A stretch of 64,000 nt of DNA from Flavobacteriaceae bacterium (GCA_965660845.1 CBFIBH010000002.1:290631-354630), one strand, 5' to 3'; positions 25,354 through 32,416 are shown, counted from the stretch's first letter. Notes: a model not told the origin generated them from the sequence alone. Translations and numbers: made by a program.

Positions 25354-27510
25354 ATGAAAAAATTCATCCTCATTAGTTTTCTGTTCATATACAGCTATGT
25401 ATCAGGACAAAAAACAGAAAGTCCTTATCTCCAAATTCAAACAAAAGGAGCTATCATTCCACTACAAAGCTCTAATGCCGATGTTGCAATTGTTGGTAAA
25501 ATTGCACATGTAACTCTAACACAAACATATCATAACCAAGGAAAAACTCCTATTGAGGCTAAGTATATATTTCCAATGTCTGCAAAAGCTGCTGTTAATG
25601 ACATGAAAATGAAAATTGGAAACAGGACCATTACAGCAATTGTATACGAAAAGAAAAAAGCTAATAAGGTTTACAAAAAAGCACTCAAAGAAGGAAAAAG
25701 AGCTAGTAAATTAGAGCAACATAGACCCAATGTTTTTCAAATGAATGTTGGCAATATTATGCTTAATGATACAGTAGAAATAAGTATTTCTTACACTGAA
25801 TTGTTAACACCAAAATCAGGTGACTATCAATTTGTTCTTCCAGGAGTTGTAGGACCTAGATTTACCGGAGAAACAAAAAAAAATGAAGACTTTTTTAATA
25901 CTGGATATACTAAAAAAGGATTGAATTCAACTTTTGATTTTAGTTTGAATGCTTGCATAGAGTCTTCGTTAGTACTTCAAAAAGTAAATTCGACATCACA
26001 TCAAATTAAAGTTAACTATCCAGATGCTACCACTGCAGAAATAGTTTTAACAGATGAAAAAAATCCTTCAAACAGAGATTTCATTGTAAACTATTCTATG
26101 AGGGGAAATGAAATTCAAGGAGGATTGCTTCTATATCAAGGAGAAGAAGAAAATTTTTTCTCTTTTATGATTGAGCCTCCAAAGAGTAACATTAAATCAG
26201 AATTACCTCCTAGAGAATATCTCTTTATTGTAGATGTTTCTGGATCTATGATGGGTTATCCGATAGAAGTTGCTAAATCATTAATGCAAAATTTATTAGG
26301 AAATCTAAATCCAGAAGATGCTTTTAATGTGTTACTTTTTTCTGCTGATAATAAAGTATTTAAACAAAAAGCCATTGAAGCTACAGAAACAAATATTAAA
26401 GAAGCATTTCAGTTTTTAAATGGAACTTTTTCTAACTATGGTCAAGGAACTAGACTTTTAAAAGCTCTAAAAAAAGGTTATCAATTACCTAAAAAATTCG
26501 AGGGAACTTCTAGAACAATGATTGTAATAACAGATGGTTATGTAGCATTAGAGAAAGAAGCTTTTCAGATGATTGGTGATAATTTAAACAAGGCCAATGT
26601 GACAACTTTCGGAATTGGAAGCAGTGTAAATAGATATTTAATTGACGGAATCTCTAGAGTTGGAAAAAGCACAAGTTTTATTGCTACAAATAAAACAGAA
26701 GCTTATGAAGTTGCAGAAAAGTTTAGAAAATACATTGCCTCTCCTCTTCTAACTCAAGTTTCGTTTTCAACAAAAGGTTTCAACACCTACGATGTAGAAC
26801 CTAAATCTATTCCAGATGTTTTTGCTGAAAGACCTTTATCAATTCATGGAAAGTTCAAAGGAAAACCCACAGGAGGTATAACCGTTTCTGGTTTTCTAGG
26901 AAAAAAGAAAGTGTCAAAAACCTATCTAGTTAAAAATGGGAGGTTAAGCAAACAAAACAAAGCATTGAAGTATTTATGGGCTCGCAATAAAATTCAAGAA
27001 CTAGGAGATTATTATCAAGCATTTGGAAATGAAAATGATATTAAAAAGCAAATTACAGAATTAGGAATTCAATACAATTTAGCTACTAAGTATACATCAT
27101 TTGTTGCTGTTGATAATGAAGTGATAAATGCTAAAGGAAAATTAAAAAAAGTAAATCAGCCTCTACCACTTCCTCAAAACGTAAACAATACAGCAATTGG
27201 AGCTGAAGCTGGAATAAAAGGAAGATCTATTTATAAAAAAAGTTACAAAGTTTCAGTTGAAGGAAACATTGAAAATTCAAAAGTCAGAGCTATAAAAATA
27301 TGGTTAAAAGGTAGCAAAAGTGTAATGATAAAGAATTGGTTAAAGTTTGGTAACAAAATCCAAATTGAGATAGACAAAAAAGGAAGGATTGTATCTATTA
27401 AAATCGATAAAAATGGAATTTGGAAAAATGTATCAATTCAAAAGTCAGGACTTTATCAGCTACCTAACCATATACAACTGGATAGTAAACTATCTATCAT
27501 TATCAAATAA
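25354..27510 (+). CDS. Exported VIT (inter-alpha-trypsin) + von Willebrand A domain protein
   Basis: Signal peptide; VIT (VTLTQTYHN..PIEAKYIFP..FQMNVGNI); MIDAS DVSGS (D294)..T..TDG; NLATKYTSFVAVD. Confidence 0.9.
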   Translation: MKKFILISFLFIYSYVSGQKTESPYLQIQTKGAIIPLQSSNADVAIVGKIAHVTLTQTYHNQGKTPIEAKYIFPMSAKAAVNDMKMKIGNRTITAIVYEKKKANKVYKKALKEGKRASKLEQHRPNVFQMNVGNIMLNDTVEISISYTELLTPKSGDYQFVLPGVVGPRFTGETKKNEDFFNTGYTKKGLNSTFDFSLNACIESSLVLQKVNSTSHQIKVNYPDATTAEIVLTDEKNPSNRDFIVNYSMRGNEIQGGLLLYQGEEENFFSFMIEPPKSNIKSELPPREYLFIVDVSGSMMGYPIEVAKSLMQNLLGNLNPEDAFNVLLFSADNKVFKQKAIEATETNIKEAFQFLNGTFSNYGQGTRLLKALKKGYQLPKKFEGTSRTMIVITDGYVALEKEAFQMIGDNLNKANVTTFGIGSSVNRYLIDGISRVGKSTSFIATNKTEAYEVAEKFRKYIASPLLTQVSFSTKGFNTYDVEPKSIPDVFAERPLSIHGKFKGKPTGGITVSGFLGKKKVSKTYLVKNGRLSKQNKALKYLWARNKIQELGDYYQAFGNENDIKKQITELGIQYNLATKYTSFVAVDNEVINAKGKLKKVNQPLPLPQNVNNTAIGAEAGIKGRSIYKKSYKVSVEGNIENSKVRAIKIWLKGSKSVMIKNWLKFGNKIQIEIDKKGRIVSIKIDKNGIWKNVSIQKSGLYQLPNHIQLDSKLSIIIK

Positions 27511-27544: not shown

Positions 27545-28633
27545 ATGAAAAAAACAATTAAAAAAGCAAGTTTAGTAATGGGAGTATTACTAATTGCTAC
27601 AACATTTACAAACTGCAATAAAAATAAAGTAAAGCAAAATCAGACAATTGCAGCTATAAATACTACAGAAAATGTTGTCCCAGTTATACAAAAAGTTGAA
27701 ACTAGACAGCCAGTAGTTTTTATTACAGGAATAGATAAAGGAAAGAATACTTTTTATAAAAGTGCTCGAAACTATTTTCTAGAAAAAAATTATGAAGTTG
27801 TTGATTATACTTTTTCTATAGAAGAGATTTTAACATGGTTAACTAAAAATCATCAAAATAAAAATTATGGAGATATTCATATTGTTGCACACAGCAATCC
27901 ATGGAGAGGTTTGTCTTTAGAAACTGTAATTAAAGGAGAACGAGTTACAGCAGAATCATTAAGAAAAACCTTAACTCAAGGAAAGTTGCCAGAATTGAAC
28001 AAAGGAATTACAACAAATACCAAGATTGTATTTCATTCTTGTGGTTTAGGTTCTAATAAAGAGCTAATGAATACTTTAAAAGATGCTTTTGTAGGTGATG
28101 AAGTACCTTCTGTAGTTGCATCGCCTTATTACAATGTATTCGGTGGTGAGTTTTCAGATCATTATTTAGCAAAACCTTATTACGTTTTCTATCCAACTGC
28201 ACAATCACCTGGAATGGTAGATTTATCAAAAGAGATTGCGAGAAAATACCCAGAAGAAAAAGATATTGTTTGGTATGATGCTTTAAATAATCAAAAGGAA
28301 AGATATATAGGAGATGTTTATACTTTTAAATTCAATATTCCTATTCAATGGGAATTTGATTATACAAATTCTGATGATACTATTCCTTCATTTAAAATAC
28401 CAGAAGAAATTATGGATTGGATCTCAGAGGACGAGCAATTATCTAAAGTGATGGGGAAATTCAATATTCCGTTAGAGAAGTTTAGATGGAAATCTTATAC
28501 CAAAGGAAACAAGCTAATTATTAAAGGAAAAACAACTGTTGTTTGTGTTTTAAAACCATTAATAAAACCATATGGTGATTTACAACACATTGAACCTGAT
28601 GTTAATAATTTAAGATTGTATGCATTAAGATAA
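27545..28633 (+). CDS. Lipoprotein of unknown function, putative clan-CD-like His/Cys fold
   Basis: Lipobox-like TFTN-C24; IHIVAH116S and IVFHSC166G. Confidence 0.7.
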   Translation: MKKTIKKASLVMGVLLIATTFTNCNKNKVKQNQTIAAINTTENVVPVIQKVETRQPVVFITGIDKGKNTFYKSARNYFLEKNYEVVDYTFSIEEILTWLTKNHQNKNYGDIHIVAHSNPWRGLSLETVIKGERVTAESLRKTLTQGKLPELNKGITTNTKIVFHSCGLGSNKELMNTLKDAFVGDEVPSVVASPYYNVFGGEFSDHYLAKPYYVFYPTAQSPGMVDLSKEIARKYPEEKDIVWYDALNNQKERYIGDVYTFKFNIPIQWEFDYTNSDDTIPSFKIPEEIMDWISEDEQLSKVMGKFNIPLEKFRWKSYTKGNKLIIKGKTTVVCVLKPLIKPYGDLQHIEPDVNNLRLYALR

Positions 28634-28712
28634 TTTTTTGGAATGTTATTTGTTTTAGTTGAGAAAGTAACTGCTTGTGATGAGCAGTTACTTTTATGTA
28701 TGTTTGTTAACC

Positions 28713-31670
28713 ATGAAAATCTGTAAACTGATTACATTTTGCTTTGCTCTAATTTGCTTTTCCTTAAATGCACAAAATAGTGAATGGCAAAACTTTGGAA
28801 TAAAAGAAGGTTTGCCACAATCTAATATTTCTAGTATTGTTCAAGACAGTATTGGATATATTTGGTTAGGAACTCAAGGAAGTGGATTGGTTCGTTTTGA
28901 TGGCAAAGATTTTAAAATACTCAATGAAAAAGACAGTTTACTTTCAGGTTTTATAAACGATTTAGTGTTCAAAAAAGACTCTCTTTTCATAGCAACCAAC
29001 CAAGGACTGAGTGTTATGTCAAATGGTACAATAAAATCCTTCAGAACACCAAAAATTAATAAAATAATTCCGCTACAGAATCAGTTTTTTTTAGCAACAG
29101 ATTCAGGAATTTATCAATGGAAAGGAACTTATATCATACCATTAAAAATAGATTATAAGGTTGATTTGAATGTGGTAAATGATTTGATTTTTCATCAAAA
29201 TTCATTTTACATAGCAACAAACAAAGCATTATGGCAAACCAATACTTTGATAAAATCTACAAACTCAGAAAAAATATCCAATGGTAAGTTTACTTCTTTC
29301 TTGAAAATTCAGAACAAATTGTATGCAAACAATAAATTATCTGGAATTTACGAGGTAAGGAAGAAACAACTTCTATTAAAAAAGAAAACGAATAGTATTG
29401 AAGAAATACAATTGATTGAGAATGAAATCTTAATGCTTACTTCAAACGAAGGAATAAAAAAAAGTGATTCAGAATTCAAAAATACACAACTAGTTCATTC
29501 GGAATTAAAATCAGATAAAATTCAAGATATTTTTAAAGATAAAACCAACTCTATCTGGATTGCCAGTGCAAACAGAGGTTTGTTCAAATTCACCAAAAAC
29601 AACTTTGAACATTTCACAACCAAAAAAGGATTATCTAACAATAAAATCAATGCCTTAGTTCCACATGGAGAAAATCTATGGATTGCCTCAGGAAACAAGG
29701 GAATTCAAAAGAAAATTGGTGCCCATTTTATTAATTTAGGAATAGAAGAATTACAAAATACAACGGTTAATTCAATAGCTATTGATTCTAGTAATAATAT
29801 TTGGTTAGGAACAGAAAGTAAAGGGTTATTACTTTTAAAATATAAAAGTCAAAAGGATAGTATAAAAAATACAGCAGAAGAGATTTTAGATACATTATCA
29901 TCATCCTATCAATTTATCAATCTTGCAATACAACTTCCTAATATTGGAAAATCTATTCAATCTATTTATGAAAAGGATTCTAAAGTTTGGATTGCTGATG
30001 GAAGGTTTATACATGAATTAACTACCAAAAACGGAATAATTCTAAAAACAAAAATCTTTGGTAAAAATCAAGGTTTTAAAGACACCAAAATCAATAGTTT
30101 TTTTTACAGAAAAAATAAACTTTGGTACTCTTCATCGGCTGGTAATTTAGGTTATATAAAAGATCGTAATCTAATTGATTATTATCAACCATTAGGTTTT
30201 AAAACATCGATCAATTGTATTTCAGAAAAAAACGGATACTTATTTCTAGGGACTTCAAATCGTGGTGTTTGGTTAGTATCAGTCAACAATCCAAAAGATG
30301 CTTTTCAACTCAAAGGAATTAAAAAATTAAATTCTCAATATGTAAATCAATTATTATTCGATGCTTCTGGAGATTTGTGGGTTGGAACAGAAAAAGGTTT
30401 GAACAAAGTAATTCTTAACAAGAATTCGATTAAAGACGTTTTTTATTTTTCAAAAAATGATGGTTTTTTGGGTGTAGAAACAACTCAAAACTCAATTGCT
30501 CTAACTAAAGATCAGAATTTATGGTTTGGAACCAACAATGGTTTAACAAAACTAGTAAATCTTCAAACTAAAAACTCGACTATCAAACCTACAGTTTTTA
30601 TTGAAAACTTGGAGGTTTTATACAACAAGATTGATACAGTAAATGTGAATTCCTATTCTAAAACACTCAATCTAAAAGCAAATCAAAACTCATTATCATT
30701 TGAATATAAAACTGTTGATATAGACAATCCAAATGAAATACAATACCAATGGAGACTGAATGAAAATGTTTCTTCTTGGACTAGTAAAAATTCAATCGAT
30801 TTTGCCAACTTAAGTTCTGGTTCTTATACGTTTGAAGTAGTTTCTATGAATAGAAACTCTGTTAAGAGCAAAACCAAACGTTTTCAATTTTATATTCATA
30901 AACCCTGGTATTTACAAAACTGGTTTTTGATTTCATCAGCAGTAATTGGAACTTTTTTAATTGTGTTTATTGTGTTTAGTTACACTCAGAAGTTAAAAAG
31001 AAAAGCAAAAGCAGAAATCCAAATATTAAAAACAAAAAACCAACTGATTGCACTAGAACAAAAAGCATTACAATTACAGATGAATCCTCACTTTGTTTTC
31101 AATGTGTTGAATAGCATAAAGGCTTTTGGATCTAATGGAAAGTTAGAGTCAATGAATACAATTATCAATGAATTTGCAACCTTATTAAGAGGTGTTTTGC
31201 TAAATTCTAGAGAAGAGTTTGTAACACTGAAAAGTGAAATTGATATTCTAAAAAGTTATCTGAAAATTGAAGAAAAGCTGCAAAACAAATCATTTACTAT
31301 TATAATAGACATAGAATTAGATTACTTTGATTCTGAGGAAGTTTTAATCCCTTCTATGATACTTCAACCATTTATCGAAAACAGTATCAAACATGCATTT
31401 AAAATTGAAAACAGAGAAAATAAGATAAAAATTCAGTTAGATTTGAAAGAGAAATTTATGTATTGTTCAATAAGTGATAATGGTGTTGGTTATAAAACCT
31501 CTCAAAAAAATAAAAATAAACAGCATAAATCGGTAGCAATAAACGTTACTAAAGAAAGATTAGAGAGTTTAATTCAATATCCGAATTTTAGCATCAAAGA
31601 AATTAAAGAAAACCAAGAAGTAAAAGGTACTTGTGTTAGTTTTCATATGCCGTATCAAACAGATTTTTAA
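28713..31670 (+). CDS. LytS-type sensor histidine kinase with Reg_prop beta-propellers and Y_Y_Y domain
   Basis: EGLPQSNISSIVQDSIGYIWLGT repeats, TM helix, LQMNPHFVFNVLNSI, QPFIENSIKH, DNGVG; probable ATG 28713. Confidence 0.92.
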   Translation: MKICKLITFCFALICFSLNAQNSEWQNFGIKEGLPQSNISSIVQDSIGYIWLGTQGSGLVRFDGKDFKILNEKDSLLSGFINDLVFKKDSLFIATNQGLSVMSNGTIKSFRTPKINKIIPLQNQFFLATDSGIYQWKGTYIIPLKIDYKVDLNVVNDLIFHQNSFYIATNKALWQTNTLIKSTNSEKISNGKFTSFLKIQNKLYANNKLSGIYEVRKKQLLLKKKTNSIEEIQLIENEILMLTSNEGIKKSDSEFKNTQLVHSELKSDKIQDIFKDKTNSIWIASANRGLFKFTKNNFEHFTTKKGLSNNKINALVPHGENLWIASGNKGIQKKIGAHFINLGIEELQNTTVNSIAIDSSNNIWLGTESKGLLLLKYKSQKDSIKNTAEEILDTLSSSYQFINLAIQLPNIGKSIQSIYEKDSKVWIADGRFIHELTTKNGIILKTKIFGKNQGFKDTKINSFFYRKNKLWYSSSAGNLGYIKDRNLIDYYQPLGFKTSINCISEKNGYLFLGTSNRGVWLVSVNNPKDAFQLKGIKKLNSQYVNQLLFDASGDLWVGTEKGLNKVILNKNSIKDVFYFSKNDGFLGVETTQNSIALTKDQNLWFGTNNGLTKLVNLQTKNSTIKPTVFIENLEVLYNKIDTVNVNSYSKTLNLKANQNSLSFEYKTVDIDNPNEIQYQWRLNENVSSWTSKNSIDFANLSSGSYTFEVVSMNRNSVKSKTKRFQFYIHKPWYLQNWFLISSAVIGTFLIVFIVFSYTQKLKRKAKAEIQILKTKNQLIALEQKALQLQMNPHFVFNVLNSIKAFGSNGKLESMNTIINEFATLLRGVLLNSREEFVTLKSEIDILKSYLKIEEKLQNKSFTIIIDIELDYFDSEEVLIPSMILQPFIENSIKHAFKIENRENKIKIQLDLKEKFMYCSISDNGVGYKTSQKNKNKQHKSVAINVTKERLESLIQYPNFSIKEIKENQEVKGTCVSFHMPYQTDF

Positions 31671-32416
31671 TGAAAAAGTTAACCTGCTTATTGGTGGATG
31701 ACATTCCTGATATCTTAGAAATGTTGGAAAAAGACGTGAAAAGACTTTTTCCAAATATTGAAGTTATTGGAAAAGCAATGAGTGTTGTTGAAGCTGCTAA
31801 GGAACTTCGTAAGCAACAACCTGACATTTTGTTCTTAGATATTATGTTAGGAGATGGAACTGGATTTGATGTATTAGAAATACATCCAAATCTTTCTTCT
31901 AGAATCATTTTTGTCACCGCAAGTGATGAGTATGCAATCAAAGCTTTCAAGTTTGCAGCGATTGATTATGTTTTAAAGCCTTATTCTGATACTGATTTAC
32001 TGTCTGCTGTAAACAAAGCAATCAATCAAATACAGCCAAACACAAAACAATATGAGGTTTTACAAGAGACATTAAAAACAACTAAAACTCCACAAAAAAT
32101 TTCCTTGAATACACAAGAGAAGATTATTGTAGTTTCTTTAGATGACATTATCAGGTGTGAGTCTGATAATAACTACACAATATTTTATCTAAGTAATGGA
32201 GAAAAAATATTAGTAGCAAAAACCTTGAAAACCTATGCAGATTTATTAAAAGACTCTGGGTTTATTAGAGTTCATCAAAGTCATTTAGTGAATAAGAAGT
32301 TTATTAAAGAGTTTATTAAATCTGATGGAGGATATTTGTTACTGACAAATAAAAAAACAATTCCAGTATCTGTAAGAAAAAGAGCCGAAGTAATTGAGAC
32401 TATTCAAAAATTTTAA
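31670..32416 (+). CDS. LytTR-family response regulator
   Basis: REC domain (LFLDIML, FVTA, DYVLKP) plus LytTR (ESDNNYT, FIRVHQSHLVN); shares a base with the kinase stop codon. Confidence 0.95.
   Translation: MKKLTCLLVDDIPDILEMLEKDVKRLFPNIEVIGKAMSVVEAAKELRKQQPDILFLDIMLGDGTGFDVLEIHPNLSSRIIFVTASDEYAIKAFKFAAIDYVLKPYSDTDLLSAVNKAINQIQPNTKQYEVLQETLKTTKTPQKISLNTQEKIIVVSLDDIIRCESDNNYTIFYLSNGEKILVAKTLKTYADLLKDSGFIRVHQSHLVNKKFIKEFIKSDGGYLLLTNKKTIPVSVRKRAEVIETIQKF

Follow-up and report, generated by a model that had tools for sequence, protein, structure and literature searches.

The window analysed here is a stretch of 64,000 nucleotides from a marine flavobacterium, and at positions 27545 to 28633 of its plus strand it holds an intact open reading frame with an ATG start, which encodes a predicted lipoprotein of 362 amino acids. 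Judging from the comparison of homologous sequences, this lipoprotein probably carries a cysteine-protease-type His-Cys active site, and its gene follows one that encodes an exported VIT-VWA protein. The explanation towards which we lean, with moderate conviction, is that the lipoprotein is a dedicated peptidase or transpeptidase that acts on its VIT-VWA partner and that it has, in addition, a second, non-catalytic role. The features of the window on which the analysis is based are the following:

25354..27510 (+), gene for an exported VIT + VWA protein of 718 amino acids (Pfam VIT, 9e-33; VWA_3, 2e-13)
27545..28633 (+), open reading frame of the His-Cys lipoprotein, 362 amino acids, with His116 and Cys166
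27545..27616 (+), signal peptide and lipobox, predicted from sequence; codon of Cys24 at 27614-27616
27707..28144 (+), dyad-bearing N-terminal alpha/beta domain, DUF4347-like, approximately residues 55-200 (AF2 model; sub-threshold in Pfam)
27890..27892 (+), codon of His116, putative general base; His in 54 of 59 representatives
28040..28042 (+), codon of Cys166, putative nucleophile; 54 of 59 representatives have Cys here, between strand 160-164 and helix 172-181
28145..28630 (+), family-specific C-terminal alpha+beta domain, residues 201-362 (AF2 model)
28663..28695 (+), terminator-like hairpin with a stem of 15 pairs and then a T-rich tail (consensus match only)
28677..31670 (+), LytS-type histidine kinase with a beta-propeller (Reg_prop/Y_Y_Y), from Pfam; the ATG at 28714 is the likelier start
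31670..32416 (+), presumed LytTR-type response regulator, 248 amino acids, assigned by orthology to neighbors with Response_reg and LytTR domains

Signal Peptide, Location and Domain Organization

The N-terminus of the protein, MKKTIKKASLVMGVLLIATTFTN-C24, reads as a signal peptide followed by a lipobox, in agreement with the first-pass annotation of this stretch, which had named the product a hypothetical lipoprotein. Cys24 is invariant in an alignment of 24 close homologs; the Asn at position -1 is atypical for a lipobox, and the lipobox Cys is absent from many distant members of the family. Surface lipoproteins of Bacteroidota carry an export signal of acidic residues after the lipid-bearing Cys. 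The residues that follow Cys24 are basic (CNKNKVK) and lend no support to the surface location that had been assigned to the protein. Together with the tails of the VIT-VWA partners (TonB_C-like or with an inner-membrane anchor, both periplasmic features), they indicate that the lipoprotein most likely resides in the envelope and faces the periplasm.

The AF2 model of the full-length protein, built from 59 family representatives (mean pLDDT 91.7, pTM 0.82), begins with a signal helix at the N-terminus and continues with an alpha/beta domain and a C-terminal alpha+beta domain (200-362). The elements predicted for the alpha/beta domain are, in order, b57-60, a70-80, b84-86, a92-101, b110-114, b122-126, a136-144, b160-164, a172-181, b189-192 and b196-199. 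The C-terminal domain has conserved residues of its own (W243, P266, W315 and C334); neither Pfam nor the PDB sequences held a match to it, and no structure resembled it significantly in fold. The 534 homologs of the lipoprotein are without exception labeled ‘hypothetical’, with no Pfam family assigned to any of them, and an exhaustive search of 1.8 billion representatives yielded 280 family clusters at 50% identity. Scans of the window protein against Pfam and NCBIfam found no sortase family at E ≤ 1; a match to protein-glutamine glutaminase (NCBIfam, E 0.025) was limited to the signal-peptide region and was set aside.

Conservation and Joint Loss of the His-Cys Pair

His116 lies in the motif DIHIVAH-S and Cys166 in KIVFHSC-G, 50 residues apart, and the hydrophobic strands that had been read from the sequence in front of both residues are present in the AF2 model (strands 110-114 and 160-164), which gives the order that is characteristic of clan CD. 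Cys166 is placed by the same model at a strand-to-helix junction (helix 172-181). The first alignment comprised the 24 close homologs, with 53–78% identity, from Tenacibaculum, Polaribacter and other marine Flavobacteriaceae; in it H116 and C166 are variable and H112 and H164 are invariant, a pattern that at first sight goes against the dyad. D64 also stays invariant in the dyad-less copies of this close clade.

The picture given by the family as a whole is different. Among 59 full-length representatives (20–58% identity), the pair H116 and C166 is complete in 54 and entirely missing from the other five, and neither residue is ever found alone. N118, G122 and G169 are also conserved in at least 90% of these proteins, whose consensus is V-x-H-G-N-x-W-x-G ... 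C-G-L-G-x-N. Position 117 is G in 33 of the 59 and S in 23, and position 165 is G, A or S, followed by Cys-[G/A]; the window protein has H-S and S-C-G. A pair kept in at least 90% of a family as divergent as this one is, as far as the alignment can tell, no chance feature. The alternative dyad formed by H112 and H164 was rejected, given that position 112 is N in 42 of the 59 representatives and position 164 is H, Q or Y.

The relation between the two residues was followed further in 150 homologs, of which 68 carry the complete pair and 81 no part of it; a lone Cys occurs once (P0086, Q/C) and a lone His never. The two are thus kept or lost jointly in 149 of 150. In a tree of these proteins, built without the His116 and Cys166 columns, the state of the dyad changes approximately 11–12 times, and for 6–7 of these changes the well-supported branches leave no alternative. 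Among the independent contrasts there are six in which Cys follows His, none in which it goes the opposite way and one in which it is unchanged (sign test, p = 0.03). This repeated joint loss implies that the two residues serve one function, which, by the evidence of these sequences, has been abandoned repeatedly within Flavobacteriaceae with the rest of the protein still under selection.

Fold of the N-Terminal Domain and its Relationship to DUF4347

The window protein scores below the gathering cut-off of Pfam DUF4347 (PF14252; 24.6 bits), with 17.1 bits at full length and 19.5 for the domain alone, and the sub-threshold match spans residues 91-178, the His-to-Cys core. A member of the same family, P0127 (40% identity to the window protein, E 6e-73), passes the threshold over the same core with 36.1 bits (E 6.9e-9). 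For this reason the N-terminal domain is best classified, by sequence, as a divergent branch of DUF4347 in which the window protein itself has no formal membership, and the DUF4347 likeness noticed at first reading was well founded. No DUF4347 was found in the control genomes. The protein P0270, with an eCIS core, had been considered as a bridge to DUF4347 and was rejected, as its fragment gave no match to the Pfam model.

DUF4347 had no function attached to it until recently. One of its proteins is PA0256 of P. aeruginosa (PMC8262886), which was renamed Tce1 in 2026, when it was solved inside the Hcp3 ring (PDB 9QPE, where it is chain G; PMC13323088). Tce1 and Tce2 are cargo of the T6SS and are described as C80-like putative cysteine proteases, their protease activity being inferred; the aligned C80-type dyad of Tce1 consists of H186 and C240, and that of Tce2 of H65/C115, which have the 50-residue spacing of the window protein, and the C115S change in Tce2 abolishes its toxicity in yeast (PMC13323088).

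Structural comparison, which had also been suggested as a check, gave a divided answer. In the AF2 model, strands do precede both residues, and Foldseek searches of the PDB with the isolated N-terminal domain (pLDDT 93) gave nothing at E < 0.001. The best E-value, 0.02, belongs to flavodoxins, so the topology of the modeled domain, which may be called flavodoxin/caspase-like, is generically flavodoxin-like. Tce1 (9QPE_G) has the top TM-score (0.53/0.47; E 0.2, not significant), caspase-3 appears at rank 4 (E 0.032, TM 0.38, not significant) and the Bacteroides C11 peptidase ‘iotapain’ at rank 11 (TM 0.48, not significant); flavodoxins score as well as these clan CD structures. With the whole protein as query, the top 50 PDB matches included no clan CD structure and contained spurious methyltransferase alignments (TM 0.14). 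Profiles of the N and C-terminal domains found only noise among PDB sequences (e.g., Ras, endoglucanase; E > 0.2), and that of the N-terminal domain found no named clan CD family in PDB sequences or Pfam. The earlier idea of a divergent clan CD cysteine peptidase stands as regards the order of His and Cys, agrees in part with the motifs of the family (H-G in 33 of 59, H-S in 23) and lacks a significant clan CD match in Foldseek; clan CD membership in the strict structural sense is unproven by these models.

Domains of this type may also occur in other settings. The only viral structure matched at E < 0.001 in BFVD is A0A8S5MXG5 (2.9e-4, 150 columns), an uncharacterized phage protein of Myoviridae sp. 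ctWaE18 that may carry a related alpha/beta domain. An eCIS protein of 1130 amino acids (L009:7258-10650, genome G310) combines eCIS_core (DUF4157) with a domain of this His-Cys type (IAHGN ... RGCRIGRN), and its match to the family profile (E 1e-10) indicates that the domain is also used in putative contractile-injection cargo.

The VIT-VWA Partner: Adjacency, Fusions and Tails

VIT-VWA proteins occur widely in bacteria and are similar to the heavy chains of the inter-alpha-trypsin inhibitor of mammals. In the window, the VIT-VWA gene lies upstream of the His-Cys gene and is separated from it by 34 nt; it is the sole VIT match in the source genome, and its product scores 370 bits against TIGR03788 (‘marine proteobacterial sortase target’), below the cut-off of that model. 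The terminator-like hairpin located after the His-Cys gene (28663-28695) suggests, as a sequence feature, that the two genes form one transcription unit. A search for RNA evidence found marine metagenome DNA runs only.

This arrangement is widely conserved. GTDB species genomes were scanned and yielded 136 loci; the 80 that were retained come from Bacteroidales (rumen and gut MAGs included), Saprospiraceae, Chitinophagales, Cyclobacteriaceae, Flavobacteriales, Chlorobiota and one Desulfatiglandales bin. His and Cys are both present in 79 of these 80 loci. Sufficient upstream sequence is available for 75 loci, and in 69 of these the gene immediately upstream, on the same strand, encodes a VIT-VWA homolog. 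The same holds for all nine other intact-dyad loci examined, among which two genomes of another family have the same four-gene order as the window. Distant members of the family have the VIT-VWA gene and no kinase nearby, from which it follows that the conserved core is the pair formed by the VIT-VWA and His-Cys genes. In one clade an unknown ORF of 187 amino acids (L014:3893-4456) lies between the two.

In several lineages the two proteins are fused (P0126, P0156, P0164, P0189, P0192 and others, with 25–44% identity to the window protein), with a complete VIT-VWA protein in front and the His-Cys domain attached at its C-terminal end. The fusions P0189 and P0192, as well as L092, have between the two halves a TM helix, a basic cluster and a second hydrophobic segment that ends in a lipobox Cys; to judge by these segments, signal peptidase II may split products of the P0189/P0192 type into an anchored VIT-VWA protein and a lipoprotein.

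Haft and Varghese showed that the sorting signals at the C-terminal ends of bacterial VIT-VWA homologs are interchangeable: a dedicated Gram-negative sortase, encoded next door, accompanies LPXTG, exosortase goes with PEP-CTERM, and rhombosortase with GlyGly-CTERM (PMC3237569). The pair formed by a VIT-VWA target and a class GN sortase was confirmed here on a Rhizobium plasmid. The VIT-VWA core of the Bacteroidota proteins closes with a conserved segment, QPLPLPxGVxNxAVG, and the tails that come after it are highly variable: a small domain of approximately 100 residues in the window protein; a TonB_C-like sequence (PEFPGG...YP..A...GI.G.V.V.F.V..DGS...KWKPG) in gut and rumen Bacteroidales, as read in the upstream ORFs of L062, L070, L076-L078, L083, L086, L091, L093, L094, L096, L098 and L099; a TM helix with an Arg/Lys cluster in Saprospiraceae (L049, L050, L057, L061 and L104); and, in the fusions, the His-Cys domain itself, directly joined. 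No conserved short sorting motif or cleavage site was found in the tails compared.

The motif QPLPLPxG was considered as an equivalent of the LPXTG sortase motif and rejected on two grounds: the Rhizobium target has KLPLNLPDG, a linker of approximately 90 residues and then LPQTA, a TM segment and RRR, and the motif is also present in a VIT-VWA/SusC fusion of Pontibacter that has no His-Cys partner. This fusion (L106:4001-8695, Pontibacter sp. G13, plasmid NZ_CP134698.1) is a protein of 1564 amino acids that joins an N-terminal VIT-VWA region, 41% identical to that of the window, to a SusC/RagA TonB-dependent outer-membrane receptor, with no His-Cys gene nearby; its architecture hints that VIT-VWA proteins of Bacteroidota work with TonB-dependent transport.

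Loss of the Dyad and Loss of the Partner

In all eight dyad-defective copies examined, a VIT-VWA gene is not adjacent:

P0074, dyad K/S, Polaribacter, VIT-VWA not adjacent
P0082, dyad Y/N, Tenacibaculum, VIT-VWA not adjacent
P0009, dyad D/K, VIT-VWA not adjacent
P0029, dyad N/Q, VIT-VWA not adjacent
P0059, dyad K/S, VIT-VWA not adjacent
P0086, dyad Q/C, VIT-VWA not adjacent
L102, dyad R/S, Saprospiraceae, VIT-VWA not adjacent
G055, dyad E/P, complete genome from the window's own genus, VIT-VWA not adjacent

The combined counts for the loci examined are:

Intact dyad: VIT-VWA adjacent, 78; not adjacent, 5
Defective dyad: VIT-VWA adjacent, 0; not adjacent, 8

The association between the state of the dyad and the adjacency of VIT-VWA is strong (Fisher, p = 1.5e-8, with loci counted without phylogenetic correction). 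Three sister contrasts set an intact copy with VIT-VWA against defective copies without it: the window against P0059, P0013 against P0009 and P0029, and P0031 against P0082. In the complete genome G055, no VIT domain was found anywhere. P0086, which has lost the VIT-VWA neighbor and the His and has kept the Cys, looks like an intermediate as far as its sequence goes. The five intact copies without an adjacent VIT-VWA gene are all from Saprospiraceae.

The Neighboring Kinase and Regulator

The hairpin at 28663-28695 overlaps the listed GTG start of the kinase ORF, and the ATG at 28714 (MKICKL...) is, from the sequence, the more likely start. The propeller kinase lies downstream in every Flavobacteriaceae homolog examined, dyad-less ones included. 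The dyad-less Flavobacteriaceae copies are conserved in sequence and still precede the propeller kinase and the LytTR regulator, which points to a second, non-catalytic role of the lipoprotein scaffold linked to this sensor. Two variations of the neighborhood were observed: a gene for a MauE-like membrane protein of approximately 370 amino acids lies between uvrA and the module in many Flavobacteriaceae relatives (L016, L018, L019, L020, L021 and L008) and is absent from the window, and some Flavobacteriaceae relatives have a metallophosphoesterase gene inserted between kinase and regulator.

Proposed Mechanism and Alternative Explanations

According to the mechanism that we propose, the N-terminal domain would be a divergent DUF4347-type (C80/clan-CD-like) hydrolase that uses His116 and Cys166, followed by a C-terminal domain unique to the family. 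Cys166, activated by His116, would cleave the VIT-VWA protein or transfer it to another acceptor, and the bond attacked would be located beyond QPLPLPxGVxNxAVG, within the variable C-terminal tail or the anchor region. In the fusion proteins the reaction would take place in cis, as in C80 domains, and in the operon pairs in trans; its functional analogs in other phyla would be sortase, exosortase and rhombosortase, the enzymes by which VIT-VWA homologs are processed there. The protein of Flavobacteriaceae would serve, moreover, as a scaffold with a second, non-catalytic role tied to the propeller kinase, and this role would account for the persistence of the dyad-less copies. An enzyme-substrate pair is the simplest explanation for the fusions and for the loss of the dyad along with VIT-VWA. 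A bolder version, which we offer tentatively as possible and still doubtful, is that the family constitutes a fourth, Bacteroidota-specific class of VIT-VWA processing or sorting enzyme, after the class GN sortase, exosortase and rhombosortase; it would be DUF4347/C80-like, would mature or release VIT-VWA proteins from variable anchors (TM helix, TonB_C-like or small beta domain) and would have been turned repeatedly into a dead co-factor of the kinase once VIT-VWA was lost.

Another way of looking at these data is to consider that the protein is a true hydrolase or transferase whose substrate is an envelope molecule other than VIT-VWA (for instance, a different protein, a peptide from peptidoglycan or a signal to which the propeller kinase responds), and that VIT-VWA is only a docking or regulatory partner, for example one that presents a ligand through its MIDAS site. 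The failure to find a cleavage site in the very variable VIT-VWA tails, the link of the module to a sensor kinase in Flavobacteriaceae and the five copies with a dyad and no adjacent VIT-VWA all fit this explanation, which we nevertheless regard as rather unlikely, since the fusions and the coupled losses are explained most simply by an enzyme and its substrate, and the distant members have VIT-VWA with no kinase nearby. It is also conceivable that H116 and C166 bind a metal or make up a redox site, and that the domain which carries them is a generic flavodoxin-like one with no relationship to the peptidases of clan CD. Flavodoxins do have the best Foldseek E-values, and joint loss would also be expected for two ligands that share one site; however, only two ligands co-vary, with D64 invariant in the dyad-less copies, the Cys sits at a Gly-flanked strand-helix junction that is typical of a nucleophile, and the domain is homologous to DUF4347, whose members align their His and Cys with the C80 dyad, which leaves this the most improbable of the explanations considered.

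A different question is whether the copy in the window is catalytic at all. The 81 of 150 homologs that lack the dyad are still highly conserved, and the window protein has H-S instead of H-G; it could thus be a pseudoenzyme, as are most orthologs from Tenacibaculum and Polaribacter, and serve as a scaffold or adaptor without catalysis, with H116 and C166 kept by recent ancestry only. Such a fate is decidedly improbable, given that both residues are kept by the window protein and by its three nearest relatives, that D64, N118, G122 and G169 are kept as well, that the VIT-VWA gene is found upstream, the state that accompanies an intact dyad elsewhere, and that H-S is shared by 23 of the 59 family representatives.

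The partnership with VIT-VWA and the repeated conversion of this His-Cys family into pseudoenzymes were not found in the literature searched. An uncharacterized family of at least 280 sequence clusters gains a testable putative active site (C166/H116) and a candidate substrate next door, and DUF4347, so far known from effectors and giant adhesins, is extended into envelope housekeeping. The repeated pairing with a private processing enzyme is among the few clues to the function of VIT-VWA proteins; to this pattern the family would add a new type of enzyme, across a phylum that includes marine, gut and rumen Bacteroidota. The 11–12 occasions on which His and Cys were lost jointly, linked as they are to the loss of the partner gene, offer a natural experiment in which an enzyme becomes a pseudoenzyme and keeps a second job.

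Comparison with Known Systems

The closest likeness is to DUF4347 as represented by Tce1 and Tce2, which share with the window protein an alpha/beta domain in which His is followed by Cys approximately 50 residues later (H65/C115 in Tce2, H116/C166 here); both sides are read as cysteine hydrolases. Whereas the known proteins are secreted effectors or parts of giant adhesins, the window protein is a putative periplasmic lipoprotein, adds a unique C-terminal domain of 160 residues and is tied to its VIT-VWA partner; the majority of its close orthologs appear to be pseudoenzymes. With clan CD in general (caspases, C14; clostripain-like, C11; legumain, C13; gingipain, C25; C80) the family shares the order of His and Cys, each after a hydrophobic strand; its consensus with H-G and [G/A/S]-C-G agrees in part with the clan CD motifs, the window protein itself having H-S. 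The architecture of the VIT-VWA fusions recalls the cis-autoprocessing of C80. The difference lies in the lack of a significant sequence or structure match and of an identifiable P1 pocket in the window protein.

As regards the enzymes that sort VIT-VWA proteins (class GN sortase with LPXTG, TIGR03784/TIGR03788; exosortase with PEP-CTERM; rhombosortase with GlyGly-CTERM), the likeness is that one enzyme gene lies beside one target gene; sortase also has a His-Cys pair, and some Bacteroidota partners likewise end in a TM helix and a basic cluster. Most Bacteroidota partners, in contrast, end in a folded domain of approximately 100 residues or in a TonB_C-like domain, with no TM anchor, and the fold and sequence of these enzymes are unrelated to those of the window protein, so that the relation is one of analogy only. 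Taken together, these comparisons place the lipoprotein, by its sequence, outside both the formal DUF4347 family and the sortases, and portray it as dedicated-sortase-like in its genomic logic.
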